Shown: positions 1 through 15,183 of the stretch, piece after piece
Layout: each line of letters starts with the position of its first letter
How positions within the stretch are numbered: position 1 is the stretch's first letter
Source: Candidatus Hodarchaeota archaeon
GTDB lineage: Archaea > Asgardarchaeota > Heimdallarchaeia > Hodarchaeales > Hodarchaeaceae
Assembly: GCA_016839815.1 (NCBI GenBank)
Contig: JAEOTM010000051.1
Span: forward strand, 1-28,490
Direction of reading: 5' to 3'
Length of the DNA: 28,490 nt
The notes under the pieces: model-generated
The model's input: the letters and a program-made list of their open reading frames with translations, nothing else
The model's database searches: none
Told to the model about the DNA's origin: nothing
Program-made: the position numbers and the translations under genes

Positions 1-1713
1 CTGACTGGTAAACAGACATACAAAGTAATAATTGAATTATTTGGTAATAAACCTAATTTTGTAGTAGTGGGTGACGAGAATAAAGTGATATTTGCTTCTT
101 GGTATAGAAAAATGAGGCATAGAGATGTATTACCAGGTAAAGAATTCGTATTACCTCCTAGTAGAGGAAAATCAATTCTTTCTATGTCATTTGAAGAAAT
201 TAAGAATGTTGTAGATACCGCTGACAATACAGAAGATGAGATTGTCAGGGTATTAGCTCGAGAAGCTGGCGGAGGAGGGGTATTGATGGAAGAAATCTTA
301 GCTAGAGCAATTATCCCGAAAATTAAATTATGTAAAGCAATAAATAATGAGGATATTACTAATATAGTTACCTCCATTCAAGAAATCAAACAAGAATTAG
401 AAACATTGGAACCTTCGGTATCTTTCGATTCACAGGAGCGTCCAATCGCCTTTCAACCGATTCAGTATAAATCAAATCCTAATTCAACAAAAAAATATGA
501 CTCTTTCTCAAAAGCATTAGATTTTTTTTATTCTTTCGATACTCCTTTGGTTTCACCAAGCTTGAGTAGAAATCAAAGAAAAAAAGAGAAACTTGAAAAA
601 GTCCTTCAATCACAGCAAGAGACTTTGAATCATCACACCGAAAGGCAAAAATTGTATAAAAATATAGGAGATGCAATATATCTGCATCTCAATGATATTA
701 ATGAGCTTCTTTCAACGATTTTAAATGCTCGAAAAAAGAATGTTTCGTGGGAGGATATTAATACTAAATTGGAACAAGCAAGGGAAAAAAATATTTCATC
801 TGTGCGGTTACTAGCAGGAATTAATACAAAACGGGGAACTATCAATATTATCTTGAATTCTGAGGTTATAGAGGTTGATTTCCGTAAGAATGCCGCAATA
901 ATTGCTAATGATTATTTTGAAAAGTCTAAAAAAGCAGGACGTAAGATAATTCCCGCTAAGGAAGCGATTTTAGATACTAAATCTAAGATTGAGGTGCTAG
1001 ATGAAGATATCGACGAGCAAGCTATGACTGAATCGATAATTTTGAAACGTCGAAAACGAAATTGGTATGAAAAATTTCATTGGACATTCTCCGAAAATGG
1101 CCTTCTAATAATTGGTGGTAAAGATATTTCGACGAACGAAGAGATTGCAAAAAGACGGATGAAGAAGGATGATTTATTCTTCCATGCTGATGTCCAAGGA
1201 GCTCCTTATACGGTAATTATGCGCGATAGTAGTGATGAGGAAGTAACCGATGTAGATATTCAACTAGCGGCTAGAATGGCAGCTAGTTTTTCAAGTGCTT
1301 GGAAAGCTGGATATTCAGCAATAGATGTATATCATGTAAAAGGAGAAAATGTTGGGTTTTCCGCTCCAAGTGGAGAATATCTACCTAAAGGAGGAATAAT
1401 GGTGAGAGGGAAGAGAAATTATATACGTGGGCAAAATTTAGAACTTGCCATTGGATACGAAGAGAATGAATTCAATATAAGAGTCATTTATGGATCTCCT
1501 ACTCAAATATCTAAATGTAGTTCAGTAACGGTTTTGATAAAACCTGGTAATGAATCTAAAGGAAAAATTGCTAAACAAATCCAAAAGATATTTATGAAAA
1601 AGGCCTCTACACCAGAACAGAAGGCAAAAATAAAAGCTCTTGATCTAAATGAGATAGTTCAGGCAATACCTCATAATTCCAAGATATTTAATGTTGATAA
1701 TCTTGTGACTTAA
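1..1713 (+). CDS. rqcH: Ribosome quality control factor Rqc2/NEMF (NFACT family, RqcH-like), 5'-truncated by the window edge
   Basis: Frame is open from base 1 (LTGKQTYKVIIELFGNKPNFVVV, an NFACT-N 'IELFG..N' motif), so the ORF-track start at 67 is internal. It has coiled coils and the NFACT-R motifs WYEKFHW, IGGKD..TNE, FHADVQGAP and SAPSGEYLPKGGIMVRGKRNY. Confidence 0.92.
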   Translation: MTGKQTYKVIIELFGNKPNFVVVGDENKVIFASWYRKMRHRDVLPGKEFVLPPSRGKSILSMSFEEIKNVVDTADNTEDEIVRVLAREAGGGGVLMEEILARAIIPKIKLCKAINNEDITNIVTSIQEIKQELETLEPSVSFDSQERPIAFQPIQYKSNPNSTKKYDSFSKALDFFYSFDTPLVSPSLSRNQRKKEKLEKVLQSQQETLNHHTERQKLYKNIGDAIYLHLNDINELLSTILNARKKNVSWEDINTKLEQAREKNISSVRLLAGINTKRGTINIILNSEVIEVDFRKNAAIIANDYFEKSKKAGRKIIPAKEAILDTKSKIEVLDEDIDEQAMTESIILKRRKRNWYEKFHWTFSENGLLIIGGKDISTNEEIAKRRMKKDDLFFHADVQGAPYTVIMRDSSDEEVTDVDIQLAARMAASFSSAWKAGYSAIDVYHVKGENVGFSAPSGEYLPKGGIMVRGKRNYIRGQNLELAIGYEENEFNIRVIYGSPTQISKCSSVTVLIKPGNESKGKIAKQIQKIFMKKASTPEQKAKIKALDLNEIVQAIPHNSKIFNVDNLVT

Positions 1714-1728
1714 TGATATTACGAATCC

Positions 1729-2337
1729 TCACATGATTTCGTCATCATCTATATGATCTTCTCGTGTTTGAATCCCCAGACATTGTGGACATAAGGTATA
1801 TCCGTTTGCTGTTGATAGGTTTACTGAATAATTGCCGCAATCATCACAAAATCCTTGTAGATGAGGGGGTGTTAGTTCAGAGTCTGGTTGTGATATGATG
1901 ATTTGTTGTTCACGACGAATTGCTAATAATTCAGGTGCAAAAGTGAGAAGGTCATTTGTCGAGACAATTCCTAATGGTTTTGACGAGTCCTGTGCATCGA
2001 CTACTAAAATACGCTCAATTTTCAGTTTTGACATCTGACGCATAGTACTTTCAAGAGTCTCATCCGAGGTAACAAAGGAAACTGGTTTACTCATGGCGTC
2101 TCCCGCTAGAATGATTCCAGGATCTAGTGCACGACCAAGAACACGTTGAATAATGTCACCTTTTGTTATAATCCCGATAATATCTTCATCTTTTATTATC
2201 ACTGACCCGATTTGATGATTCCTCATTAGTTTCGCGGCTTCAGTAACAGGAAGGTTACTTGGCATTGAAATTATTGGACTTTTGATTAACCCTCCAACTA
2301 AAACTTCTTCATGGTCATTATTCAATTTGAAGGTCAC
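1729..2337 (-). CDS. CBS-domain pair protein with C-terminal zinc ribbon
   Basis: Two CBS repeats (PVTEAAKLMRNHQIGSVII..IIGIITKGDI; MSKPV...IERILVVD...LGIVSTNDL) plus C-terminal GFCDDCG...LCPQC, a common archaeal architecture. GTG start is uncertain. Confidence 0.88.
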   Translation of the reverse strand: MTFKLNNDHEEVLVGGLIKSPIISMPSNLPVTEAAKLMRNHQIGSVIIKDEDIIGIITKGDIIQRVLGRALDPGIILAGDAMSKPVSFVTSDETLESTMRQMSKLKIERILVVDAQDSSKPLGIVSTNDLLTFAPELLAIRREQQIIISQPDSELTPPHLQGFCDDCGNYSVNLSTANGYTLCPQCLGIQTREDHIDDDEIM

Positions 2338-2489: not shown

Positions 2490-5400
2490 CTAAATTGAAT
2501 TATCAAAGATAAGGGTTGTTGGTTTTGGACCTACTTCAAATAAAAGTTTCTTATTCAGCTCAATGAACCTGATCCAAGATTTTGTGTATGGGGTTAAGTC
2601 CTTTGAATATTGCTCGGAGAGTTGATTTATAATCTGTAAGTATCTGAGAACCCACCCTTTCGATAATGTAAGTTCTAAGGTTTTATTCTTACAAGAAGGA
2701 CATCTATCTGATAATGGTGCTCTCCTATAAGTAGTTTTACAAAATTTACATCTAATAGGTTGTTGGAAAAATCGTGAAATTGACGTCGATACTTTTATTA
2801 AAAAGTCATTGACTAATAGATTATCTACATACTTACCTTCCTCTATTCCTCTTATATTCTCAAGACTTTCAAGAGCAATTTTGATACGTTCAAGTATTTT
2901 CTTATCAGTTAACTGATTCTCAAGTGGATTCCTAGATATATTGGTTGATGTGTGAATCGGGAAAGTTGAGGTTAATAGTAAGGAACTTTCTTGAGATATC
3001 AAGTCAGATTGTTCTGGATTGTTAGATAATTCTTGATAGAATATTTGATTCATAACCAGCGAAATTTGTTTGGAATAATTGAGTAAATCAGACCAATCAT
3101 CAACGAAATTGATAACAGAAGGAATATCTAACGCTCCTCCGTGATAACTTGGAATATATTCGCGAGAAAAATTCAATAGAACATCGAAAAGAAGAGTAAT
3201 TGAGTCATTAGCTCCATTACAAGAACGAGATTTAAGGAAATGCCAGATCGGATGTGCAAATAGCACATTATTAGTTGAATACCCAATTATTCTACCAATT
3301 ATTCCTACCTGCGTAATTGGTGAGATTCCTACGACTAATGAACCAGTTATTGATTTAAAGGATTGAAATCGATAATAAGGTGACAAATCATATTGGAAAC
3401 GTAATTCATCGTCTAAAAATTTGCTTTGAGCGAATAGGAATTTTGCCCCCTCCTCATTAACGATAAGATCATAAGGGAAAATTTCAATCAGCTGATCTTC
3501 TTGAGAAAGATTATCACCATGAATATCATGAGAATAGCCAAGACGGTGAAGTGTGTCAATTGAGGTATTAATCTCATTTGCTGAAAAAATTCTGATGGGA
3601 CTGTTGGTATAACTAAATCTGGAGGTTCCATCCTTAAAAACGTAGATCCCACGTTTAGCTCTTAATATTCCTTTCAATATCGTCTCTGGAACACCATATA
3701 TATTATCCAAATAGGATATTCCCTTTACCTTCTTAATATTTGTCGAACCGAGGCTTTTCATCCCTGAATTAAAGATACCGTAAATATTAACTGTTTTCAA
3801 CGATGTTGGATACGCTTTTTTCTCGCAGCTTGAGCATGTAGGTTTATCTGTGATATGACCCTCCCTACACATGTACTTTTGATCTGTTTTTTGTTTACAT
3901 TCAGGACAATAAACACTGAAGGACTCAATATCACAGGAATTACAATATCGATTCGCAACACGGATCTGAGTGGATGACTCTTGTGGGATTTTGAAAAAAT
4001 CCTTTTGAGGTCCTCCGTTCTTTCCCAAAGGAAAAAGGACGTGATGAGGAGGATTCGTAAATCTGGGCTCTGATTTTTCCATTCGAATAAGTTTAAATCC
4101 AATCCTCTTGTAACATAAGGATCGAACTGGTACATTGAGCATCGCTTGACATAGTACCTCAACGGTAATCGTATCTATATCTTTTTCTACAATCTCCATC
4201 AGATGCGAATATCTCTCTTTAAAGAGTGGAATAAATGAATTCAAGATTTCTGAATTGACTTTATTTTCGAAAATCTCAAAAGGAACTCCTAATTGCTTTA
4301 TTATTCTCAAAACTTCTTTATCCAAGGGAAGAAAAGATTCGGAATTAGTATTAATTCTCTGCATGAGTAAAATGAAGTCACTTAAAGCAAGCTCATTCCA
4401 ATTCAAAGAATATCTTGGATGAAGAGGGACCTCAAAGGCTTTTGATAATGAATATGCTTGTTCCCAAGAAGGATAGAAATTAATTGGATTTCGAAGTAAT
4501 TGGTATAAATCACCCTCAGAAATCTCTGGAACTAATGTATGTAAGCTTTTAAATTTCGTAGAGGAAATTTTTGCTTCTATTTCACGACTCCACCATTCTT
4601 CTGTCCAAGCGGAAAATATAATCGGTGTTGCTTCTGGAATATCTGAAATAGAAATTAGAATATCTCCCATTTCCCATATTTGTTTTACTTCAGACTTTAT
4701 TTTTTGTAATTCCCTCTGGGAATTGATCCTCTTCAGAGATCCATCTTCAAATTCCACAAGAGGCCCCATAATTGATGAAACTGGGTTAATTGCAAAAGTA
4801 TTCTCTGAAATATCTAATTGAACCGTACAACCTGGTGTGAGTATGCCTGTTAGGGCCATTGTGACAGGATGGATACCAATAGTGCCAAAACCAGTTATTC
4901 TCGATTCACCATACCGTAATCTAAATCCTCCCGATTTGTTTGATTGAGAAAGGAGTGGTTGTGTACTGCGGATATCCCCAGTTCCAAATGCTTTCTTCTG
5001 CTTTAGGATTGTAAATTGTAGTTTGTCTAGCCATTCCCATTCAGGAAGACCTGATTTGGTTTTTTGGATAATAATTTGAGTCAAATTGCGAAGAATATGA
5101 TCTAGGGTAACTGAAAGTCCCATTCGCAAGTGATTTGTTAATTTTGGTAAATTACGATATTTTTGTACTTCGATTCTTTCATAAGGGTCACTGGATAATT
5201 CTACTCCGATGTTCTGGATAAAAAGTTTCAAGTGTTCCTCATCATAATCTAAGGTTTGATCACTCAAGCTTAGGTAGAGCTCATATTCTTCTACATATCT
5301 TCCAATTATTTCTGGGCTTGAATGAAATCGATTTAGGTGTAAAATCCCTCGTAGATAATCTGCGATGAGAATTGCTAATCCAGTTATATTTCCTGGAACA

Positions 5401-5828
5401 TATCGAATCATATTTGTAAAAAATAAGGTGAGGTAATTCTGTTTGGGATCAATCCTTATTTTATGTACGTATTCTTCAGGTACTGAGCATTGGCCACGAC
5501 TGAGAATAACAAACGAACTCTGGATAGCTAGTAAGATCAGCCGTTCTCTATCCTTTTTTAGGAACCTACCGTTTACTATCTGCTTTGCTACGTCTGCAGC
5601 AAGCAATAAAAGGTTTTTATGTTGATTGATTCTTTCTGGCAGATATTTATCTAAGCCAGGAATTTGCAAGATTGCAAGAATAGTTTCAGTTGATGAATGT
5701 GTAATTACTGACTCGATTGAAGAAGAAGGGTCATGTTTGAGGTTTCTTGCTTTATTTGCGACTTCGATCTGTGCATTCACATTTTTTTTTAGCCGTTCAA
5801 CATATTCTTGAAATTTTAATTCAATCAT
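2490..5828 (-). CDS. polC: DNA polymerase D large subunit (DP2) homolog, full length but predicted catalytically inactive
   Basis: Colinear DP2 motifs: N-terminal KAR..HDP, GGFRLRYG, GP.V..EDGS, EEWW, PLHPRY, VLFPLG..GG, KG.LRAK.G.YVFKDGT.RF, G..GRIIGY, LLNFSR.Y.P, central Cys/His zinc modules and C-terminal CKFC..YRR.PL...CPSC. Catalytic KRRNCDGDED reads KSRSCNGAND (nt 3204-3233; C870-D875). Confidence 0.92.
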   Translation of the reverse strand: MIELKFQEYVERLKKNVNAQIEVANKARNLKHDPSSSIESVITHSSTETILAILQIPGLDKYLPERINQHKNLLLLAADVAKQIVNGRFLKKDRERLILLAIQSSFVILSRGQCSVPEEYVHKIRIDPKQNYLTLFFTNMIRYVPGNITGLAILIADYLRGILHLNRFHSSPEIIGRYVEEYELYLSLSDQTLDYDEEHLKLFIQNIGVELSSDPYERIEVQKYRNLPKLTNHLRMGLSVTLDHILRNLTQIIIQKTKSGLPEWEWLDKLQFTILKQKKAFGTGDIRSTQPLLSQSNKSGGFRLRYGESRITGFGTIGIHPVTMALTGILTPGCTVQLDISENTFAINPVSSIMGPLVEFEDGSLKRINSQRELQKIKSEVKQIWEMGDILISISDIPEATPIIFSAWTEEWWSREIEAKISSTKFKSLHTLVPEISEGDLYQLLRNPINFYPSWEQAYSLSKAFEVPLHPRYSLNWNELALSDFILLMQRINTNSESFLPLDKEVLRIIKQLGVPFEIFENKVNSEILNSFIPLFKERYSHLMEIVEKDIDTITVEVLCQAMLNVPVRSLCYKRIGFKLIRMEKSEPRFTNPPHHVLFPLGKNGGPQKDFFKIPQESSTQIRVANRYCNSCDIESFSVYCPECKQKTDQKYMCREGHITDKPTCSSCEKKAYPTSLKTVNIYGIFNSGMKSLGSTNIKKVKGISYLDNIYGVPETILKGILRAKRGIYVFKDGTSRFSYTNSPIRIFSANEINTSIDTLHRLGYSHDIHGDNLSQEDQLIEIFPYDLIVNEEGAKFLFAQSKFLDDELRFQYDLSPYYRFQSFKSITGSLVVGISPITQVGIIGRIIGYSTNNVLFAHPIWHFLKSRSCNGANDSITLLFDVLLNFSREYIPSYHGGALDIPSVINFVDDWSDLLNYSKQISLVMNQIFYQELSNNPEQSDLISQESSLLLTSTFPIHTSTNISRNPLENQLTDKKILERIKIALESLENIRGIEEGKYVDNLLVNDFLIKVSTSISRFFQQPIRCKFCKTTYRRAPLSDRCPSCKNKTLELTLSKGWVLRYLQIINQLSEQYSKDLTPYTKSWIRFIELNKKLLFEVGPKPTTLIFDNSI

Positions 5829-5835
5829 TTTAGTA

Positions 5836-6558
5836 TCACGAGTAGACTCGAACCCCGTTTGGAAAAGTAACGCTAAGAATCCCTAAATTGCCAATTGTTG
5901 ACAGTCCCACGAAATAATAATGACCAGTAGAGTTGGAGTACAGCGTTGGATACAGAGGAGAGCTACCATTTAATACATAAATCTGCGCGGCCGTTATATA
6001 TTCTTGATTTGAGGTTCTTGATTGTTGTACTAGTATTTGATTTGTGAAAACATTAACCTGAGCCATGTAAGAAATACTAAATTCTTCAGAAATAGTTGTA
6101 GTCGAGTAAAAACTTTTTAATTCAAGATTAAAACGAGTTTGAATTGTACTAGTATATGTGGTTGATACACTCACGTTTGAACCCGGAGTTATCAGCGCGT
6201 TCATTGTAAAAGAACCAGTTATAAGTTCTAAAGAGGTTAAAAATGATCGTGATGAGTCTACCGCTTCGATTGTTGACAAGAATAATTCTAGATCAATTTG
6301 GGCTGATGAAGTATTATAGATAGCCGAATTATTTGTATTAATATATTTAGCCAAAATTACCTCTAAAAACGATTGCAATTCTCTCTTTATGTTGGTATAT
6401 GGTTCACGCAAAGATTCATTGGTTGATTCGATCTGTTCCGTCCCGATGTTAAGAACAGTAGCACTTATAGCAACTATATATACAGCAATCAGCATTGTTG
6501 CGAGTATAAACATTTGACCTCTTCGTTTTTTGTGAAAAGTAGCTAATACTGATGGCAT
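5836..6558 (-). CDS. Type IV pilin-like protein with class III signal peptide
   Basis: N-terminus HKKRRG|QMFILATMLIAVYIVAISA: basic stretch, Gly-1/Gln+1, hydrophobic helix. Abuts the upstream pilin gene (0-nt gap). Confidence 0.8.
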   Translation of the reverse strand: MPSVLATFHKKRRGQMFILATMLIAVYIVAISATVLNIGTEQIESTNESLREPYTNIKRELQSFLEVILAKYINTNNSAIYNTSSAQIDLELFLSTIEAVDSSRSFLTSLELITGSFTMNALITPGSNVSVSTTYTSTIQTRFNLELKSFYSTTTISEEFSISYMAQVNVFTNQILVQQSRTSNQEYITAAQIYVLNGSSPLYPTLYSNSTGHYYFVGLSTIGNLGILSVTFPNGVRVYS

Positions 6559-7071
6559 CTAGAATTTCTCCCATAAATACAATTCTATCATGTAATGTGT
6601 GGTGAATTGGCCGTATTCTGAAGATGAAAAAGAACCCACGAAATACTTAGATTGAACACCATCTCCTCCTTCCTGTAGAGCACTTATACTTGCTTGGGAA
6701 CCAATTAGATATTTATAGGGACTAAGCGTTTCTTGTCCCTGAACTTCACTCATTCGTAGTACAAAACCAACCCCTTCTGGTAGGTTTAACAGTATAAAGT
6801 CGTTAAGAACATCAAGATGATGATTATACTCTGTGAGATACTCAGCTTGACCATTGAGATATATTACAGGACGTAAGAGATTTGCTTCATCAGCCGTGAG
6901 CAGTATGTCAGATGCAGTATTTTGTAAATTCTCTAGACCACTTTGAGACTTATTAACTTGATCTGCTGCATTGATTAGTAATAAAGCTAGAATTAACATA
7001 AGTGAAACTGATACTAAGGTTTCTGCAATCTGCAGTTGTCCTCTTCGAGTCTTCTTTAAGGTTTTTCTCAT
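6559..7071 (-). CDS. Type IV pilin-like protein with class III signal peptide
   Basis: KKTRRG|QLQIAETLVSVSLMLILALLLI; C-terminal beta strand 'IELYLW' typical of this minor-pilin class. Confidence 0.82.
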   Translation of the reverse strand: MRKTLKKTRRGQLQIAETLVSVSLMLILALLLINAADQVNKSQSGLENLQNTASDILLTADEANLLRPVIYLNGQAEYLTEYNHHLDVLNDFILLNLPEGVGFVLRMSEVQGQETLSPYKYLIGSQASISALQEGGDGVQSKYFVGSFSSSEYGQFTTHYMIELYLWEKF

Positions 7072-7072
7072 C

Positions 7073-8254
7073 TTATCTACTCCTCCACATAATTAATCTG
7101 CATTTCATTACTGTTCCTCGAATATAAACAGGATATGTCTTCGCAGATTTAGTAAATTCCCTTGAACCTTCATTTTTCCTACCGAAAACTTGGTAAAAAT
7201 TACCAGAAGCTAAATCGGAATCTAGTATTGCGGGATAGGATCCAATACCTACTTTAAATGTGTTTCCAACTTTTACTGAACTAAAACAGAATATTAAGCC
7301 CGAATTAGGCACAGCTAGTGATTCATTACCTTCAAATAATGAGGGTAAACTAATAGAGTCGTTCGTATAACTTCCGTGAGTGTTTTTGTAGATGTATGAC
7401 AAAAAATGATTTTCTGGGGTATCTTGTAAATCGTGTGTATCGGAAACAAGGATTGTTGAGGAATCTAAACCACCAATCCATATGGTGCCATTAGATTTTT
7501 GACCCAAAAGTACATTTTCATGAACAGTGGAAGGATGCTTCCAGTTCATGCCCCAAAGAGGACCTTTCTCCGCCACCACAATATTAACATGCTCTCCATC
7601 TTGAATATTAAAATGGGGATCATTGTAAATATGTGAGACTCGACCATTAGTATCAGTTATTTCTGTGCCATCAACACGGATGAATCCTGTGATTAAATCT
7701 AGAGTGAAGAAGTGTACCTGGCATTCTCTGAGTGGGAAATGAGATTCAGTATCGCTAACTATGACCGAGGATTCGAAAGTAGATTCAGTAGGTTGAGTAA
7801 TCGAAATATTGAGAGATAGATATGGTTCAAGAGAAATCTGAAAATCATGTTTTGAATCCATTCCTAAAATGGATTTTACTGAGGCATAATCGAACTGTTC
7901 AAATCCCGAAATAAGTGATGGTGGCGTTATTGTTCCCGATATAATTCTTGAAATTTTCGCTGGATCAAGAATTATTGAGGTAGATGAATCCGAGCGGGAT
8001 AATCCGAATGAACTAGGAAGGGATTGTTGATAACCCCAGAATTCTGTCCCTTCTTCTTGTAATAGAATCCTCCCGAATGTATCCAATTCTTCATAACTTA
8101 AATTTTCTCGCATCTGTGTATTTAATCCATTTTGAACATTGATTACGACCAAAATCAATTGTGATAACATTAAAAGGAATAATAATAAAGAAACGATAAA
8201 ATCGATCGCTCTTACTTGACCTCTTCTTCGCTTTTTAAAATTCAGATAGTACAT
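7073..8254 (-). CDS. Large type IV minor pilin/adhesin-like protein with class III signal peptide
   Basis: KKRRRG|QVRAIDFIVSLLLFLLML; 'G...W...P..FGL' and 'Y..VK..LG' segments; internal Ig-like insert (VSD...PL...V...TDTNG); C-terminal 'RLIMW'. Confidence 0.8.
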   Translation of the reverse strand: MYYLNFKKRRRGQVRAIDFIVSLLLFLLMLSQLILVVINVQNGLNTQMRENLSYEELDTFGRILLQEEGTEFWGYQQSLPSSFGLSRSDSSTSIILDPAKISRIISGTITPPSLISGFEQFDYASVKSILGMDSKHDFQISLEPYLSLNISITQPTESTFESSVIVSDTESHFPLRECQVHFFTLDLITGFIRVDGTEITDTNGRVSHIYNDPHFNIQDGEHVNIVVAEKGPLWGMNWKHPSTVHENVLLGQKSNGTIWIGGLDSSTILVSDTHDLQDTPENHFLSYIYKNTHGSYTNDSISLPSLFEGNESLAVPNSGLIFCFSSVKVGNTFKVGIGSYPAILDSDLASGNFYQVFGRKNEGSREFTKSAKTYPVYIRGTVMKCRLIMWRSR

Positions 8255-8297
8255 TTTAACCGCTCAAGATGAATAACTATCTAGTTGTTATTATCAC

Positions 8298-8777
8298 CTA
8301 ACTAATTTCTTCACTCTTTGGTGTACTTGCATTCGCAACTTCTAGTTGAATAGTAATCTCGTCCAGTCTATCTTTCAATTCTAACATCGTAGTTTCTAGC
8401 TCTGTTAATTGCAATCCTTTTTCTAAAAGGGTTGTAGCTTGTGAAATTAGTTCATCAGCTTTTTGAGATTTTTCACTGCTTAGAGTAGATACTAATTCAT
8501 TGATAGGCGAAAACTTTTCATTTATTTCAGCGATAGATTTTTCCATCTCACTAATTTTTTTCTCTAAAGGAGCTAGATCTACCTGAACAGGACTTGGAGT
8601 TGTCGTGGGATGACTTCCAGCTTGAGTTACTGGTGTAGGTGTTGTACCTGCCCCCATCGATTGAACAAATAGGAATTCCATATTGGTTAACTTATCTTCA
8701 AGAGCTGCGATTTTTTCCAAAACCTCAACCAACATTTTCTCTTCTTTTCCCAATTCTAAAACCTCAATATATATCAT
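8298..8777 (-). CDS. Hypothetical acidic coiled-coil protein within the pilus operon
   Basis: Heptad-rich E/K/L segments flank a Pro/Thr linker; no TM or signal peptide. ATG overlaps the upstream stop (ATGA, 8774-8777). Alternative starts at 8753 (TTG) or 8735. Confidence 0.7.
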   Translation of the reverse strand: MIYIEVLELGKEEKMLVEVLEKIAALEDKLTNMEFLFVQSMGAGTTPTPVTQAGSHPTTTPSPVQVDLAPLEKKISEMEKSIAEINEKFSPINELVSTLSSEKSQKADELISQATTLLEKGLQLTELETTMLELKDRLDEITIQLEVANASTPKSEEIS

Positions 8778-9742
8778 AGAAGAATTGCAATTTTAAAGAA
8801 TGCGTAACATATGACTAACAAGATACAGGAGTGCCGTAGGCCGATTTTTGCATTACCATCTCCCATTTTACCTGCAATTAGCCCAGCAAAAACAGCCTCA
8901 ATTACCATTAGGTGGAAAAAAATTAACTGCAGTCCTGCAACATTGAAAGGTAGTGCCGTAGTTGGATCTTCCTGACTACGAACTGCATCAACCATCTGAA
9001 CAGCAAGAGTTTGAAAGAAAGAATACAATAGTATTATCATTACAAGGGCAAATACAATAAACGACGCGTAAATGATCCATGTGTATGGTTTCATAGCTCC
9101 AAGTCGTTCACGTTTTAACCCTAGAACTTCAGAAACATGTTTATGGGCGGATTCAAATACTTCCTCAATTGCTCCACCAGATCTTTCTGCTTCAAGAATT
9201 AATAATGAAGTTCTCTTCATAAGTGGTGTATCTGCAGTCTCGGTAAGACTTCGCAATGTTGCACTAAAAGGAATTCCCCAGCTAATTTTTGAAGCCATTT
9301 TCTTTAATTCAGGAGTTAAAGCTCCATATTGGTGCTTTGACGCTTCCAAAATTGCTCTAGGTAAGGGAAGGCCTGTTTTTTGGGCATCAGAAATTTCTCG
9401 CAATAATGATGGTATATGGTCATCAATATCATCACGCCATTTCTGATCAGATTTGTACGCTAATGCAGGTATCAGTAATAACGCAAGTGCAGTAAATATT
9501 GTCACATCAATTATGTCGAAAAATCCTATTATTGGATCTTGATATATCTCACTGACAGAATACAGATACGGGTCACGGAGTGGAGCATCGACCCCTTCTA
9601 CTAACTCTGTTGGAGCTGAAACATCCAATACGTGTGTAATTACTGGAATGTAAAATACTGATGCTATTAATACAAACAATACAAATAATATAACTGAGAT
9701 TATCCAATAGTTTCTTTCTTTCTTTGCAGTTAGTTTTCCCAT
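8774..9742 (-). CDS. Type IV pilus/T2SS membrane platform protein (PilC/TadC/GspF family)
   Basis: IDDHIP.LLREISDAQKTGL.L..A, YGALT.EL, WG..F, EAERSGG, and C-terminal AGLIAGKMGDG....GL.H; multiple TM helices. Confidence 0.9.
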   Translation of the reverse strand: MGKLTAKKERNYWIISVILFVLFVLIASVFYIPVITHVLDVSAPTELVEGVDAPLRDPYLYSVSEIYQDPIIGFFDIIDVTIFTALALLLIPALAYKSDQKWRDDIDDHIPSLLREISDAQKTGLPLPRAILEASKHQYGALTPELKKMASKISWGIPFSATLRSLTETADTPLMKRTSLLILEAERSGGAIEEVFESAHKHVSEVLGLKRERLGAMKPYTWIIYASFIVFALVMIILLYSFFQTLAVQMVDAVRSQEDPTTALPFNVAGLQLIFFHLMVIEAVFAGLIAGKMGDGNAKIGLRHSCILLVICYAFFKIAILL

Positions 9743-9757
9743 TTTAGAGCCTCCGAA

Positions 9758-10666
9758 TCATACTTCACGCGACGCAGTACTTATTAATAGAATCATTATG
9801 GTCAATAGTATTGGCATTAGGAAGTATGTAAGTGTAAGCATGAATACACTCCCAATAGTGGTCTCTGGACTAATGACAGCAAGAATAGCTAGAATTACCA
9901 CAAAAAATAATGGAGCAACAACTCCTACTATCATAAAAATTTCAGCTAAAACACCTAATTGTTCAATAAATTCTTTTGTTTCTTCTTCTTTTAGTTTCAT
10001 TAGGGCCTTTGTCTCTGCAGTCAAATAATACGTCAAATCTCCTCCACTGGTGATTGTAGCAGACATACCGTCCAAGAACTTAGAAAATCTTTCAGAGGGT
10101 GAACGCTCACTTGCAGTGCGTAAAGCCTTTAGGATGTCGTACCCAAAAATCTCAATATCGCGAGTAATTCTCTTACATTCTTTTGAGATTTCTGGTGCAA
10201 CAGATTCCTCGCCTGCTAATGAGTAGAATAATCTATCAGGTGGAACTCCAGAGCTTGACATCGCCGAGAGATATGAAGCTGTTGAAGTTAAACCCGATTC
10301 CATAAGGATTTTACGATCTGCGGCTTTCATTTGTGGCCAGTATAAGAATGGAACATAAGTTACAACTGTACAGATTAAAGCAATAACTAACCCTATTCCA
10401 AGTGAGGTTATCAACCAAGATTCCGTTGTACTAGTTGAATCAACAGTCTGGAGCACAAGTATCGCTAATAGGGTAGTGACTATAAAACTGAGAATACCGA
10501 TAAGAAACGAACTAAAAATCGCACTTCCTAAGTAAGCTCGTACAGAAATATCCATCCCTGCTTTTTTTAAAGAAGTATTAAGTCGTTCAAACCGACCTTT
10601 TTCAATCCATGGCTCGATAAATCTACCGAATCTTAGATACCCTACTCTTCTTATTACTTTACTCAC
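9758..10666 (-). CDS. Type IV pilus/T2SS membrane platform protein (PilC/TadC/GspF family), second paralog
   Basis: L.KAGM.I...AY, YLSAMSSSGVPP, RDIEIFGYDI..AL...SERSPS..F..FL.G...TI.SGGDL..YL; TM helices. Confidence 0.9.
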   Translation of the reverse strand: MSKVIRRVGYLRFGRFIEPWIEKGRFERLNTSLKKAGMDISVRAYLGSAIFSSFLIGILSFIVTTLLAILVLQTVDSTSTTESWLITSLGIGLVIALICTVVTYVPFLYWPQMKAADRKILMESGLTSTASYLSAMSSSGVPPDRLFYSLAGEESVAPEISKECKRITRDIEIFGYDILKALRTASERSPSERFSKFLDGMSATITSGGDLTYYLTAETKALMKLKEEETKEFIEQLGVLAEIFMIVGVVAPLFFVVILAILAVISPETTIGSVFMLTLTYFLMPILLTIMILLISTASREV

Positions 10667-10691
10667 AGAATGTAACTCCTTATTCTTCTGT

Positions 10692-12200
10692 TTAAATTGA
10701 TTTTAGTTCTCTCTTTGCGCGATCTACTGTTTCAAGTGAATTCTGGTAATAACTGTTAATGACTTCAGAGACTTGCGAATAATGGGCAAATTTCTTCTTT
10801 ACCATCCACCTTAAAATAGTCTTCCTTCTTTCTAACTCGTCAAGAACTTGTGATTCCGTTAGCCCTTGCGCTTCCTGTATACCTTCTAACGCATACGATC
10901 TTCCATAATTTATATAGGCATCTTCACGGGCATTCCATCCAAAAACTTTATTTGTTATAATTTCGGTAGTAACTGGATAGATACACACAATTTCTGTGCA
11001 TTCTATGACTCTACGAACCTGTTTGTCTCCTCTTCGAACCTTTCGGAGTACCACTAAAAGGTTTAATGTTTGGATAAGTGTTCGGGGAATATTCATTGGT
11101 TCATTTTCTAATCTACGAATTGTACCTGTTACACTATCTCCGTGAATAGTTCCCATGCCAGTATGACCAGTGGCCATTGCTTGAAATAGGTTATAGGCTT
11201 CTGAACCTCGCACCTCTCCTACAAATAGATAATCTGGTCTTTGGCGTAAAGCTGCCCGTAAGAGGTCATACATTGATACTTCACCTCTCCTTGAACCATC
11301 AGCTTCTCGTCCACCGTAACCCTCGCGCGCTACTGAGGGAATCCAATTTTCATGAGGTAAATGCAATTCTGCAGTGTCTTCAATTGATACAATCTTCATT
11401 CCAGGTCTAATAAACATAGCTAAGCTATTTAGCAAAGAAGTTTTTCCCGCGGCAGTTCCACCTGCAATAACGATTGAATTACGATTTTCTAATGCATACC
11501 AAAGTAAAGCTGCAAGATCTTCATCTAAGGTATTATATGTTATCATGTCAGTAATTGTTAAGGGATCCGAACGGAATTTTCTTATTGTAAATGTACTTCC
11601 TCTTTGTGTTACTTCACGGCCGTAGGTTAATTGAAGACGACTTCCATCAGGTAAAGCTGCGTCAAGCAATGGACGAGCTACGCTAATATGTCTACCTGCA
11701 CGTTGGGCTAATTTAATAATAAAAGCATCTAAATCGGATTCTTCTTCAAATTTAATATTAGTTTGAATACTCTCAAACTTTCGATGCCATATATAGATCG
11801 GAATACCTACACCATCGCAGCTAATATCTTCTACAGCATGGTCACGTAAAATTGCATCTATCTGACCAAATCCTACAAAATCACGTGTAATATGGTAATT
11901 TATTTTGTCAAACGTTTTTTCATCCAATTTTAAACCATAATTTTTTGCTATGCCGATGACCTTCTGACGTAAATAATCTCGAGCCACCTCTGGAGATTTT
12001 AGAACATTAAAATCAACATCTAATTCCTCTTCAAGCACATTCTTAATCATATCAAGAATTTCTTTCTCCCTTGTACTCAGAGGAATTTCTACTACAGTAT
12101 ATTTAGTTTGTTTGGTGTCAGGATCAGTAGCAACTAATGCATAGCTGAAAGGTGGAATTAATGGATAGGTTTCACGAATCAAACTGCTAGAATCGGCCAT
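10692..12200 (-). CDS. Type IV pilus assembly ATPase (PilB/VirB11/FlaI family)
   Basis: Walker A GGTAAGKT, Asp box SIEDTAEL, Walker B LRQRPDYLFVGEVRG, His box AMATGH..GTIH; EDISCDG and GSTFTIRKF motifs. Confidence 0.96.
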   Translation of the reverse strand: MADSSSLIRETYPLIPPFSYALVATDPDTKQTKYTVVEIPLSTREKEILDMIKNVLEEELDVDFNVLKSPEVARDYLRQKVIGIAKNYGLKLDEKTFDKINYHITRDFVGFGQIDAILRDHAVEDISCDGVGIPIYIWHRKFESIQTNIKFEEESDLDAFIIKLAQRAGRHISVARPLLDAALPDGSRLQLTYGREVTQRGSTFTIRKFRSDPLTITDMITYNTLDEDLAALLWYALENRNSIVIAGGTAAGKTSLLNSLAMFIRPGMKIVSIEDTAELHLPHENWIPSVAREGYGGREADGSRRGEVSMYDLLRAALRQRPDYLFVGEVRGSEAYNLFQAMATGHTGMGTIHGDSVTGTIRRLENEPMNIPRTLIQTLNLLVVLRKVRRGDKQVRRVIECTEIVCIYPVTTEIITNKVFGWNAREDAYINYGRSYALEGIQEAQGLTESQVLDELERRKTILRWMVKKKFAHYSQVSEVINSYYQNSLETVDRAKRELKSI

Positions 12201-12307
12201 CTTTTCTTTCTCCTTGTAATTATTAGTATTCTTTTAAAAAATCAAAAAGTTTCTCCTTTTTAGTTTATTTCATTATTATAGTTACATCGAATTAATAGAA
12301 TTTTTTA

Positions 12308-12760
12308 TTATGACATATGAATAGTAATATTATTTCCGTTTTTATTAATGTTGAGTGATAATATTGGATAAATACTTGTGAAGTGTCCAGAAGCACGGAT
12401 TATATATCCTGAACTTATTGTAAAGTGGATTTGTTCTGATACCTCCGCATTAAAAGTCCTTCCAGCAATAAAGATCTTTCTCCCATCTGAAGAGTTAGTA
12501 ATGTCAAGAGTGTATCTAAAACCTTGGCCTAAAGTAGGAGGTAACTCCAAGTTCTGGGTAATTGATTGGTTTGCCTCGGTATGAATAAGCAAATTCTGCT
12601 GGATTTGGATCTTGATTTGATCTAATATTGCGTCTAATTCTACTTGGGCAATATTTTCACGGAATTGATCGTTCAGAGTTGAGAACATACCGTTAGTTAT
12701 GATTACTAAGCTTAAACCAAGAGTAAATATTACCATGAACGTAATATATTGTGAGGCCAT
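12308..12760 (-). CDS. Pilin-like protein (N-terminal hydrophobic helix, no basic leader)
   Basis: MASQYITFMVIFTLGLSLVII followed by an amphipathic helix and 'LELPPTLGQGFRYTLDI', resembling archaeal minor pilins. Lies between a pilin and the ATPase. Confidence 0.65.
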   Translation of the reverse strand: MASQYITFMVIFTLGLSLVIITNGMFSTLNDQFRENIAQVELDAILDQIKIQIQQNLLIHTEANQSITQNLELPPTLGQGFRYTLDITNSSDGRKIFIAGRTFNAEVSEQIHFTISSGYIIRASGHFTSIYPILSLNINKNGNNITIHMS

Positions 12761-12787
12761 AATAATCTACCTTAAGGTTCATATTAT

Positions 12788-13711
12788 CTATGTTGTTTTA
12801 AGATTTATTTCATATTGCAATAGTTGTACCACAATGTTAAAGACATTAAGGTTATCCAATCCATTCACCTCACTAGTACTCCATATTCGAGTGGAGGAAG
12901 GTGTACCTACATATGTCCTATTACTAACTAAATCTAGTTGCGAAACAGACGTTTCCAAAGATAAAGTGCTGGGAACGGAAATATTGTTTGTGACATGTAC
13001 AGTCATTTGTCTATATTGACTGTGAATCGAATCAAAATCTGTTGTAAGAGTTATTAAAAAGATCTGGAATCGTATTTCAGGAACTGGTTGAGTAGAAACT
13101 GTAAGATATACAGATGTACGGTAATCTAATGTGATATGATGTTTACGATCTGATTGATGACTCAATGTCAAGTTAGTTAAATCATGATTATCTGAAGATG
13201 CGAACATTCCAGTGATAAATACTTGCTCACGAGTTTTATATGGATCTGGTCCAGTCAAGTATTTCATTGTGCCTCGTGGTAAGATTTCACGTGGACTACT
13301 GTAGACCCAATCTAATATCCCAACCTTCTGAAAGTCTATTATTGAATGAACTAGATCTCCATCCTGATCATTCAAGTACAAAGAAAAATAGTAAGCAATA
13401 GGATTGAATTCAAGTGTTCCAGCTGGTTTGGTGAATAAGAGAGTCCTAAATCCTCCAGGGCTCCCACTTTCATGGATCAAAGTTTCAATTGTATCATCGA
13501 GATCGATAAAACTGTTTTTAACTGAACTAATTGTTTGTTCACTTTGAGCCTGCTCTATGAACGGGACTACCTGAATAAAAGTAACCATTACACCAGTAAT
13601 GATTAAACCGAAAATTATTACTGTTGCTAGAACAGGAGAAACTGCTCTCTTCTTTTTTCTCCATCTTCGCCAAATATCTCTTCTTGATCGATATATCAAT
13701 GTTTCCAACAA
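12788..13711 (-). CDS. Type IV pilin-like protein with class III signal peptide (archaeal Pilin_N type)
   Basis: RRWRKKKRA|VSPVLATVIIFGLIITGVMV matches the archaeal pilin/archaellin N-terminal consensus (K/R-A/G|VSPVIAT). First gene of the operon; TTG start. Confidence 0.85.
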   Translation of the reverse strand: MLETLIYRSRRDIWRRWRKKKRAVSPVLATVIIFGLIITGVMVTFIQVVPFIEQAQSEQTISSVKNSFIDLDDTIETLIHESGSPGGFRTLLFTKPAGTLEFNPIAYYFSLYLNDQDGDLVHSIIDFQKVGILDWVYSSPREILPRGTMKYLTGPDPYKTREQVFITGMFASSDNHDLTNLTLSHQSDRKHHITLDYRTSVYLTVSTQPVPEIRFQIFLITLTTDFDSIHSQYRQMTVHVTNNISVPSTLSLETSVSQLDLVSNRTYVGTPSSTRIWSTSEVNGLDNLNVFNIVVQLLQYEINLKTT

Positions 13712-14148: not shown

Positions 14149-15183
14149 ATGACACCAAAGAAAAAGGAAGCACAAACAGACTCATCAGAAGATATTAAGA
14201 GCACCAAAGCTAAAGAAAAGGCTACGTCTATCACAGACCTGCCTGGAATAGGGCCTTCAACTGCCGCTAAATTGGTAGAATCAGGTTATTCATCGTTGGA
14301 GTCAATAGCTACAGTCTCAGTAGGAGAATTATCATCACTAGCAGGGCTTGGAGAAAAAACAGTGCAGAAGATCATTGAAGCCGCCCGAGAGGCATTAGAT
14401 ATTGATTTTGAAACAGCTAAAGTCGTCCTAGAACGAAGAAAAGATTTAGCAAAAATTACCACGGGAAGTCAAAGATTAGATGAACTATTTGGAGGAGGTA
14501 TTGAAACTGGTGCTGCCACTGAATTGTATGGAGAGTTCAGAACAGGAAAGACCCAGATTGCACATCAACTATGTGTTACTACACAATTACCTATTGAACA
14601 AGGAGGGTTAAGGAAGGGTGACGAGTATCCAAAGGCAGTATATGTGGATACAGAAGGAACTTTTCGGCCAGAACGAATCATTGATATGGCGGAGCGTTGG
14701 AAAGACGATCTAGATATGGATATTGTACTAGAAAATATACTTCATGGTCGTGCCCATAATTCAGATCACCAGATGGTATTAGTTGAAAAAATGGCTAAAG
14801 AATATCTTCCAACTCAGAATGTAAAGCTCCTAGTTGTCGATTCCTTGATTTCCCACTTTCGTGCGGAATATGTTGGCCGGGGGACATTAGCTACCCGGCA
14901 ACAGAAGTTAAATCAACACATTCATGCAATTCTTCATGCTGCCGAGGTCTGGAATATTGCAGTAATCTTCACAAACCAGGTTCAAGCGAAACCAGACCAG
15001 TTTTTTGGAGATCCTACCACTGCAGTTGGTGGTCACATCGTAGCTCATGCAGCACAGACCCGTGTATACCTACGTAAGTCCAAGGGGGAAAGAAGGATCG
15101 CACGAATAGTGGATAGCCCATTATTACCAGAGAACGAAGCTATTTTTGGTGTAACAGCATCTGGAATCGTAGATGTAACGTAG
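14149..15183 (+). CDS. radA: DNA repair and recombination protein RadA (Rad51-like)
   Basis: N-terminal HhH (DLPGIGPSTA.KL), FxxA polymerisation motif FETA, Walker A GEFRTGKT, YVDTEGTFRPERI, Walker B LLVVDS, FRAEYVGRGTLA.RQQKL, GGH..AH, R.YLRKSKG..RIAR..DSP. Confidence 0.97.
   Translation: MTPKKKEAQTDSSEDIKSTKAKEKATSITDLPGIGPSTAAKLVESGYSSLESIATVSVGELSSLAGLGEKTVQKIIEAAREALDIDFETAKVVLERRKDLAKITTGSQRLDELFGGGIETGAATELYGEFRTGKTQIAHQLCVTTQLPIEQGGLRKGDEYPKAVYVDTEGTFRPERIIDMAERWKDDLDMDIVLENILHGRAHNSDHQMVLVEKMAKEYLPTQNVKLLVVDSLISHFRAEYVGRGTLATRQQKLNQHIHAILHAAEVWNIAVIFTNQVQAKPDQFFGDPTTAVGGHIVAHAAQTRVYLRKSKGERRIARIVDSPLLPENEAIFGVTASGIVDVT

Follow-up and report, generated by a model that had tools for sequence, protein, structure and literature searches.

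A full-length, predicted polymerase-dead large subunit of DNA polymerase D (DP2) in Hodarchaeales, co-occurring with a Pol-epsilon-like B-family polymerase

The window analysed here, i.e. the whole stretch of 28,490 nucleotides at positions 1 to 28,490 of contig JAEOTM010000051.1 (assembly GCA_016839815.1, Candidatus Hodarchaeota archaeon), carries a gene for a homologue of DP2, the large subunit of DNA polymerase D (PolD), in which the catalytic aspartates are replaced. Most archaea depend on PolD as their essential replicase, of which eukaryotes retain only parts, namely the DP1-like B-subunits and a DP2-like C-terminal domain (CTD). The Hodarchaeales belong to the archaea that are placed nearest to eukaryotes. 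It is considered fairly probable that the protein belongs to a polymerase-dead DP1-DP2 remnant kept by selection as a non-catalytic DNA-binding or scaffold partner, and that the genome is replicated by B-family polymerases (PolB).

The DP2 gene and its product

The gene and the segments discussed below, including those of the two double-psi beta-barrels (DPBB-1 and DPBB-2), are the following.

2490..5828, minus strand: full-length homologue of the PolD large subunit (DP2), predicted to be polymerase-dead (Pfam, PDB match, AlphaFold 2 (AF2) model with Foldseek)
5379..5423, minus strand: remnant of the KH-like domain motif, GPIRSAGGT (P. abyssi GPIRSSGGT) replaced by NMIRYVPGN (alignments)
4794..4835, minus strand: remnant of the DPBB-1 loop, PGCTVQLDISENTF (alignments to canonical DP2)
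4062..4103, minus strand: remnant of the RMGRPEK motif, KLIRMEK (alignments)
3825..3944, minus strand: Zn-I and Zn-II cysteine clusters, retained (conservation in the DP2 alignment)
3291..3335, minus strand: remnant of the APHTSAG motif, SPITQVG (alignments)
3204..3233, minus strand: remnant of the DPBB-2 catalytic loop, KSRSCNGAND, residues 866-875 (phmmer alignment to P. abyssi DP2)
2493..2876, minus strand: CTD, residues 985-1112, with Zn-III and the predicted DP1-binding helical bundle (conservation, C-terminal alignment, complex model)

The open reading frame (ORF) at 2490-5828 on the minus strand encodes 1112 amino acids from an ATG start and has no internal stop. The three Pfam DP2 models for the N-terminal, central and catalytic domains (PF03833, PF24844 and PF24846; PolC_DP2_N, central and cat) match along the whole protein with E values of 1.1e-36, 4.7e-66 and 4.2e-68, respectively, all far over the gathering cut-offs. 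In a phmmer search against the PDB, the DP2 of P. abyssi (6hms_B) is matched at E 1.3e-142, and that of T. kodakarensis also at about 1e-142. By these matches the ORF is an unambiguous full-length DP2 homologue with specific substitutions at invariant positions, and chance is not an issue. The protein scores under every NCBIfam equivalog cut-off (NF003103, 728.4 vs 1269; TIGR00354, 618.3 vs 702.15).

In the alignment to 6hms_B, KSRSCNGAND faces the P. abyssi stretch krrnCDGDEDavmll. N871 (window 3216-3218) and A873 (3210-3212) stand in place of D956 and D958, and DGD is thus changed to NGA at residues 871-873. PolD has no strictly conserved aspartates besides D956 and D958, both of which it needs for polymerisation (PMC4996933; PMC6355029). 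At the sequence level no new acidic residue is seen in the catalytic loop, where only D875, the equivalent of D960, is left. The same alignment has GGRP replaced by STQP and GTQLKTERPGKG by GCTVQLDISENT, and the P. abyssi residues K386, R389 and K392, which together form a conserved basic motif in the loop of DPBB-1 (Sauguet 2016, PMC4996933), correspond to Q, I and N. The N-terminal KH-like domain, the motif of which is also replaced, guides the DNA template in canonical DP2 (Raia 2019, PMC6355029). The original prediction, made from the letters of the window, had placed KSRSCNGAND at 3204-3233 with both catalytic aspartates gone (Asn871, Ala873), had listed five other eroded motifs, and had described the frame as full-length and free of stops. 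The first of these claims is confirmed by translation and by the P. abyssi alignment, the five listed replacements are all present in that alignment, and the 1112-residue ORF with its ATG start and three matched Pfam domains agrees with the last.

The zinc-binding modules are conserved. In the DP2 alignment, C629, C641, C644, C654, C665 and C668 of Zn-I and Zn-II are invariant and C632 is nearly so, and the Zn-III cysteines (C1027, C1030, C1043 and C1046) are invariant or nearly invariant. An AF2 model built from a 21-sequence alignment has a mean pLDDT of 68.7, with most of the catalytic domain at 80-94. In Foldseek, P. abyssi DP2 chains come out on top (9f29_B first, E 2.6e-65), and the overall TM score is only 0.42 because the packing of the domains is uncertain. 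In this model, the fold of two double-psi beta-barrels is retained.

The C-terminal end differs from that of canonical DP2. The window protein ends in ...GPKPTTLIFDNSI, and the Hodarchaeales DP2 share a conserved, clade-specific ending, ...LLFDxGPRPTTL (GP[KR]PTTL), whereas canonical Heimdall DP2 end in ...L[TS][ED][FY]F (...LTEFFG or ...LSDYF). In the C-terminal alignment, the linker and the C-terminal PCNA-interacting (PIP) peptide of canonical Heimdall DP2 are absent from Hodarchaeales DP2. In P. abyssi, this peptide binds PCNA and primase (PMC7101311).

Spread, origin and selective constraint of the altered motif

DP2 was searched in 40 relatives of the window's genome (4.24 Mb in 206 contigs, 89.5% complete), and the matches were aligned. 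The aligned Hodarchaeales DP2 comprise 19 sequences, i.e. 17 full-length ones from the window's genus and two from a second family, and the catalytic motif is non-canonical in all 19. Asn occupies the first catalytic position in every DP2 of the genus, several partial ones included, and these sequences are 46-73% identical to the window protein. The motif of most species in the genus is CNGDIDS. A subclade of four GTDB species, among them that of the window, has CNGA[NT]DS or CNGV[ST]DS, i.e. CNG[AV]xDS. In the second family (L045 in G022 and L046 in G023), the motif is TANGDIDS in one genome and wholly degenerate in the other. CDGDED and all the other motifs are intact in the three other families of Heimdallarchaeia searched.

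Two side observations concern these comparison sequences. The second-family DP2 are far more divergent, with 21-27% identity and branch lengths of 2.3-3.3, and one of them is without any acidic residue in the loop. Canonical DP2 of the other Heimdallarchaeia families (L027-L031, L047 and L048) often have their catalytic loop interrupted by an intein immediately behind RRNC; the 19 aligned Hodarchaeales DP2 are all free of inteins.

The window's own genome has one DP2, and in each of the other genomes of the genus the search gave a single DP2, in some cases as one gene broken into two pieces on different contigs. A second, canonical DP2 was seen in no genome searched, including the single-contig genome G009, and an overlooked canonical paralogue is rejected as far as these data go. 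A sequencing or assembly error is likewise rejected, since the same kind of change is present in the orthologues of about 20 genomes. The original prediction had excluded such an error from the dispersal of the changes, and its conclusion holds for the DP2 examined throughout the order, both within the genus (46-73% identity) and in comparison with the second family (21-27%).

In a maximum likelihood tree, the inactive DP2 forms lie on one side of a branch with SH-aLRT support of 100, and one change of state therefore suffices to account for them. The subclade of the window is nested inside, on a stem of 0.64. The tree has no outgroup beyond Heimdallarchaeia, and no acceleration is claimed from its branch lengths. 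Most of the genus keeps basic residues at the positions of K386 and K392, and the subclade of the window does not; the erosion therefore looks stepwise. A single inactivation in the Hodarchaeales ancestor would have changed the first catalytic Asp to Asn and the Glu that follows to Ile, together with the GRP, RMGRPEK and APHTS motifs, and a later, second step in the window's subclade would have removed the second Asp along with the basic residues left in the DPBB-1 loop.

The ratios of non-synonymous to synonymous substitution rates (dN/dS) were calculated by the Nei-Gojobori method (NG86). For DP2 the ratio is 0.10 in saturated pairs, to be read as an upper bound because dS is about 1.8-2.6, and 0.27 in a close pair (96% identical, with 43 non-synonymous and 43 synonymous differences). 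The Pol-epsilon-like PolB described below gives 0.07 and 0.19 for the same saturated and close genome pairs. Nearly all Hodarchaeales DP2 examined are intact ORFs of about 1100 residues. Conservation within the genus spans the whole protein, including the dead segment of the catalytic domain and the CTD, and the GGFRLRYG and KDGTxRF segments, the cysteines and the CTD are strongly conserved. The identities of four proteins to their counterparts in the window's genome are listed below; in any given genome, PolB and RadA match more closely than DP2 and DP1 do.

RadA: 92-94% within the subclade, 78-83% in the rest of the genus
Pol-epsilon-like PolB: 78-83% within the subclade, 52-59% in the rest of the genus
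DP2: about 71-73% within the subclade, 46-50% in the rest of the genus
DP1: 68-71% within the subclade, 42-48% in the rest of the genus

On these measures DP2 is a constrained gene and not a pseudogene, and the constraint is weaker than that on the presumed replicase. The suggestion in the original prediction of a pseudoenzyme under selection, rather than one in decay, gains support from the dN/dS range of 0.10-0.27, the intact ORFs, and the conserved zinc-finger cysteines and putative DP1-binding CTD, with the loss of polymerase activity being predicted from the residues. The dN/dS values are not near 1 and are close to those of PolB, and one orthologue, that of G015, is disrupted.

DP1, the B-family polymerases and the neighbouring genes

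A single DP1 of 518 residues is encoded in the window's genome, on contig C30 (L040, G000:C30:26955-28511), and DP1 is also present in 19 of 21 relatives in the genus. Its phosphoesterase motifs I (DxH), II (GD), IV (H) and V (GHxH) are intact in the genus. Motif III is GEHD instead of GNHD in all DP1 of the genus (L040, L054-L071) except for one with GERD. Over 23 sequences, the ligands D260, H262, D304, H351, D352, H397, H460 and H462 are invariant or nearly so. Such retention would favour a nuclease-competent over a purely structural complex, subject to the effect of the change from Asn to Glu.

A model of the complex between DP1 (118-518) and DP2 (985-1112) scores 0.86 against 0.04 for the best control, which may reflect likeness to a solved complex, P. 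abyssi PolD. The mark applied is reached by 58 of 80 solved complexes and by 2 of 110 mismatched pairs; the runs agree in at least 75% of contacts, with a partner pLDDT of at least 78. As P. abyssi PolD has been solved, the pass shows a DP1/DP2-like interface and not the binding of these copies.

Four B-family polymerases are found in the window's genome. Two of them look active, with DFASLYPS or DFRSLYPN as Motif A and YGDTDS as Motif C. The third, on contig C176, is a Pol-epsilon-like PolB of 1467 residues, which matches structures of the Pol epsilon catalytic subunit at E 1.6e-60. It has the ExoI motif YDIET, Motif A DVTSMYPS, Motif B KVPLNSIYG, a Motif C of the Pol epsilon type (ELDTDG) and, at its C-terminus, the pattern CxxC...CxxC (CSQC...CVYC). 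At E <= 1e-20, it was found in the window's genome and in 22 of 23 relatives from Hodarchaeales, and 17 other Heimdallarchaeia gave no match. This split in its presence and absence is the same as that between the inactive and the canonical DP2. The CTD of the Hodarchaeal Pol-epsilon-like PolB gave no interaction with DP1 in a yeast two-hybrid assay (PMC12680538).

The fourth PolB (L042, G000:C12:9284-11518), of 744 residues, has DFLSMYPS as Motif A but lacks both the DTD of Motif C and recognisable exonuclease motifs. By its motifs, it is probably inactive.

The other genes and features of the window that bear on the locus are as follows.

1-1713, plus strand: NFACT/Rqc2-like protein with NFACT_N and NFACT-R_1 domains, running past the start of the window (domain matches)
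1729..2337, minus strand: CBS-domain protein with a C-terminal Cys cluster (Pfam CBS; conserved neighbour on the downstream side of DP2, at 18 loci of the genus)
5836..6558, minus strand: pilin-like gene with a class III signal peptide (tblastn; immediate upstream neighbour of DP2 at 18 loci of the genus)
5836-13711, minus strand: type-IV-pilus-like gene cluster, with a T2SSE ATPase at 10692-12200 and two T2SSF membrane proteins at 8774-9742 and 9758-10666
14149-15183, plus strand: RadA/Rad51, about 8 kb from DP2, in an arrangement that is syntenic in relatives such as G009

The pilin-like gene is the last of the type-IV-pilus-like cluster and ends 7 nt before the start of DP2. The order pilin-like gene, DP2, CBS gene is kept in 18 loci of the genus. 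Several small proteins of the cluster have N-termini like class III signal peptides (KKRRGQ...). Four matches to the Rad51 family are found in the window's genome, in the window itself and on contigs C185, C9 and C135. Nothing was found in tRNA and Rfam scans of the window. Among sequencing runs, none with RNA was listed for the DP2 gene, which is no evidence on its expression.

Interpretation and relation to known systems

An inactive DP2 in Hodarchaeales is already known since 2020 from two metagenome-assembled genomes (MAGs). For the 'Heimdall_B3/LC3-like' group, Kazlauskas, Krupovic, Guglielmini, Forterre and Venclovas (2020, NAR 48:10142, PMC7544198) described the lack of an active DP2 (Fig. 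S16), a divergent and possibly inactive DP1, and the co-occurrence of the PolEpsilonN-like PolB group B10 with its Zn-binding CTD, and they proposed that the acquisition of B10 allowed the inactivation of DP2. LC3 and B3 are Hodarchaeales, i.e. the same lineage, and the window's genome fits the configuration of inactive PolD with B10, having a predicted dead DP2 and a PolEpsilonN-like PolB with a Cys-rich C-terminus. DP2 inactivation is not mentioned in a 2025 study of the Asgard replisome (PMC12680538). The 2020 work drew on two MAGs, with the alignment given as a supplementary figure, whereas 19 DP2 from two families are compared here, with evidence of purifying selection and one origin, and with the further loss of the second Asp and the DPBB-1 basic residues in the subclade of the window. 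The additions are thus the order-wide spread, the single origin, the purifying selection, the stepwise erosion, the loss of the PIP peptide, the GEHD motif of DP1 and the conserved synteny.

With canonical DP2 (P. abyssi; PDB 5IJL, 6HMS, 6T8H), the window protein has in common the length class, the three Pfam domains, the two-barrel fold, Zn-I, Zn-II and Zn-III, and a CTD of the kind that pairs with DP1. It differs in D956 (N), D958 (A) and K386/R389/K392 (Q/I/N), in the replacement of the KH-like GPIRSAGG and of GRP, RMGRPEK and APHTSAG, and in having no linker, no C-terminal PIP peptide and no intein. Two metagenomic clusters of dead DP2, P0084 ('CGGEVDS') and P0151 ('MEGNTDN'), are also full-length (1146-1152 residues) with the catalytic Asp and other motifs replaced. 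Their substitutions are different, however, their identity to the window protein is only about 27-30%, and they keep a PIP-like C-terminus, KKQT[ST][IL]..Y. They possibly belong to the Nitrososphaeria-like group of Kazlauskas 2020, and they may represent independent inactivations.

In the explanation considered fairly probable above, the dead DP2 would still fold as DP2, with its three zinc modules and its DP1-binding CTD, and the DP1-DP2 heterodimer would most likely still be formed. DP2 would then serve as a non-catalytic subunit for DNA binding or as a scaffold, positioning the Mre11-like nuclease of DP1 or tethering parts of the replisome. Replication of the genome would be carried out by B-family polymerases, of which the Hodarchaeales-specific Pol-epsilon-like PolB, with intact exonuclease and polymerase motifs, is the main candidate.

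Several points weigh against this explanation. The inactivity of DP2 is inferred from residues only, and the AF2 model is of only moderate confidence (pLDDT 68.7, pTM 0.51). In most Hodarchaeales the motif is NGDID, with the second Asp and the D960 counterpart retained over a long divergence; this may point to a degree of remaining constraint on the catalytic site. The missing PIP peptide weakens a simple model of a replisome tether via PCNA and primase. On the side of the partner, neither of the two second-family genomes, both fragmented (85% and 80% complete), gave a DP1, and the Asn to Glu change in motif III makes the nuclease activity of DP1 uncertain. In one orthologue (L008, G015:C1:2667763-2671077), codon 239 is an in-frame TGA in place of the consensus Gly (GGA), and the DP2 of G015 is thereby split into frames of 238 and 868 residues; the stop may be a genuine lesion or an error of assembly.

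The complex may instead be a pure structural relic, with DP2 and DP1 both dead, which would act as a tether linking the CMG helicase to the PolB replicase, by analogy with Dpb2 and the inactive C-terminal half of Pol epsilon. Consistent with this are the motif III GEHD (one GERD) of DP1 in the genus, the judgement of LC3 DP1 as inactive in the 2020 work, and the bridging of primase and a CMG-like helicase by PolD in Thermococcus (PMC8096248). All the other metal ligands of DP1, however, are invariant or nearly so in the 23 sequences, whereas the same ligands have decayed in the eukaryotic B-subunits, which are purely structural; a Glu can still ligate metal, and the two-hybrid result for the PolB CTD and DP1 was negative. 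A relic of this kind is considered unlikely.

The comparison with Pol epsilon is one of functional analogy only. There, as is predicted here, catalysis has been lost in a module (the inactive C-terminal PolB module) that is kept with a partner of the DP1 family (Dpb2) beside an active polymerase of the Pol epsilon type. The folds, however, are unrelated (two-barrel DP2 vs Klenow-like), DP2 is a separate gene and not part of a fusion, and the DP1 of Hodarchaeales keeps most of the nuclease ligands that Dpb2 has lost.

A function outside replication, in which the dead, DNA-binding polymerase has been co-opted with the type-IV-pilus-like operon, e.g., for DNA uptake or export, is suggested by the pilin-like gene that ends 7 nt before DP2 on the same strand, by the upkeep of this adjacency in the 18 loci, and by the T2SSE ATPase and two T2SSF proteins of the cluster. 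Synteny within one genus, however, is weak evidence of a functional link, the RadA and CBS genes are equally syntenic, DP1 is encoded elsewhere (on contig C30), and the two second-family loci have no such adjacency, though their flanks are short. Such a co-option appears highly improbable.

Slightly less credible still is a working polymerase with an unconventional active site, made up, e.g., of D875 and other acidic residues. D875 and D882 are nearly invariant, and the surroundings of the loop are among the best-conserved segments within the genus. Both essential Asp, the three basic residues of DPBB-1 and four other invariant motifs are gone, however; within the subclade, position 873 is A or V and the next is N, T or S, unlike a catalytic site, and the protein scores under all the equivalog cut-offs.

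A pseudogene in progress, i.e. an unconstrained relic that has merely not yet acquired stops, is largely refuted, because, against the TGA of G015, the extreme divergence of the second family (branch lengths of 2.3-3.3) and the faster evolution of DP2 than of RadA and PolB in the same genomes, there stand the intact ORFs of about 1100 residues in about 20 species diverged to 46% identity, the dN/dS of 0.10-0.27, the strong conservation of the cysteines, GGFRLRYG, KDGTxRF and the CTD, and the conserved synteny.

A wider and tentative possibility, somewhat doubtful at present, is that the Hodarchaeales are a living intermediate of the switch from the archaeal to the eukaryotic replicase, in which a polymerase-dead, nuclease-competent DP1-DP2 operates beside the Pol-epsilon-like PolB as a trans-acting platform for the processing or proofreading of 3' ends, or as a helicase tether. 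If true, this intermediate would sit between the state in which PolD replicates and the eukaryotic state in which DP2 has been lost and DP1 kept as a B-subunit, and the subclade of the window would represent a second, later step in the erosion of the active site. A dead but selected DP2 beside a Pol-epsilon-like enzyme is a concrete system for the study of a replication handover between polymerase families, and it could show what role the scaffold of a polymerase has once its catalysis is gone.

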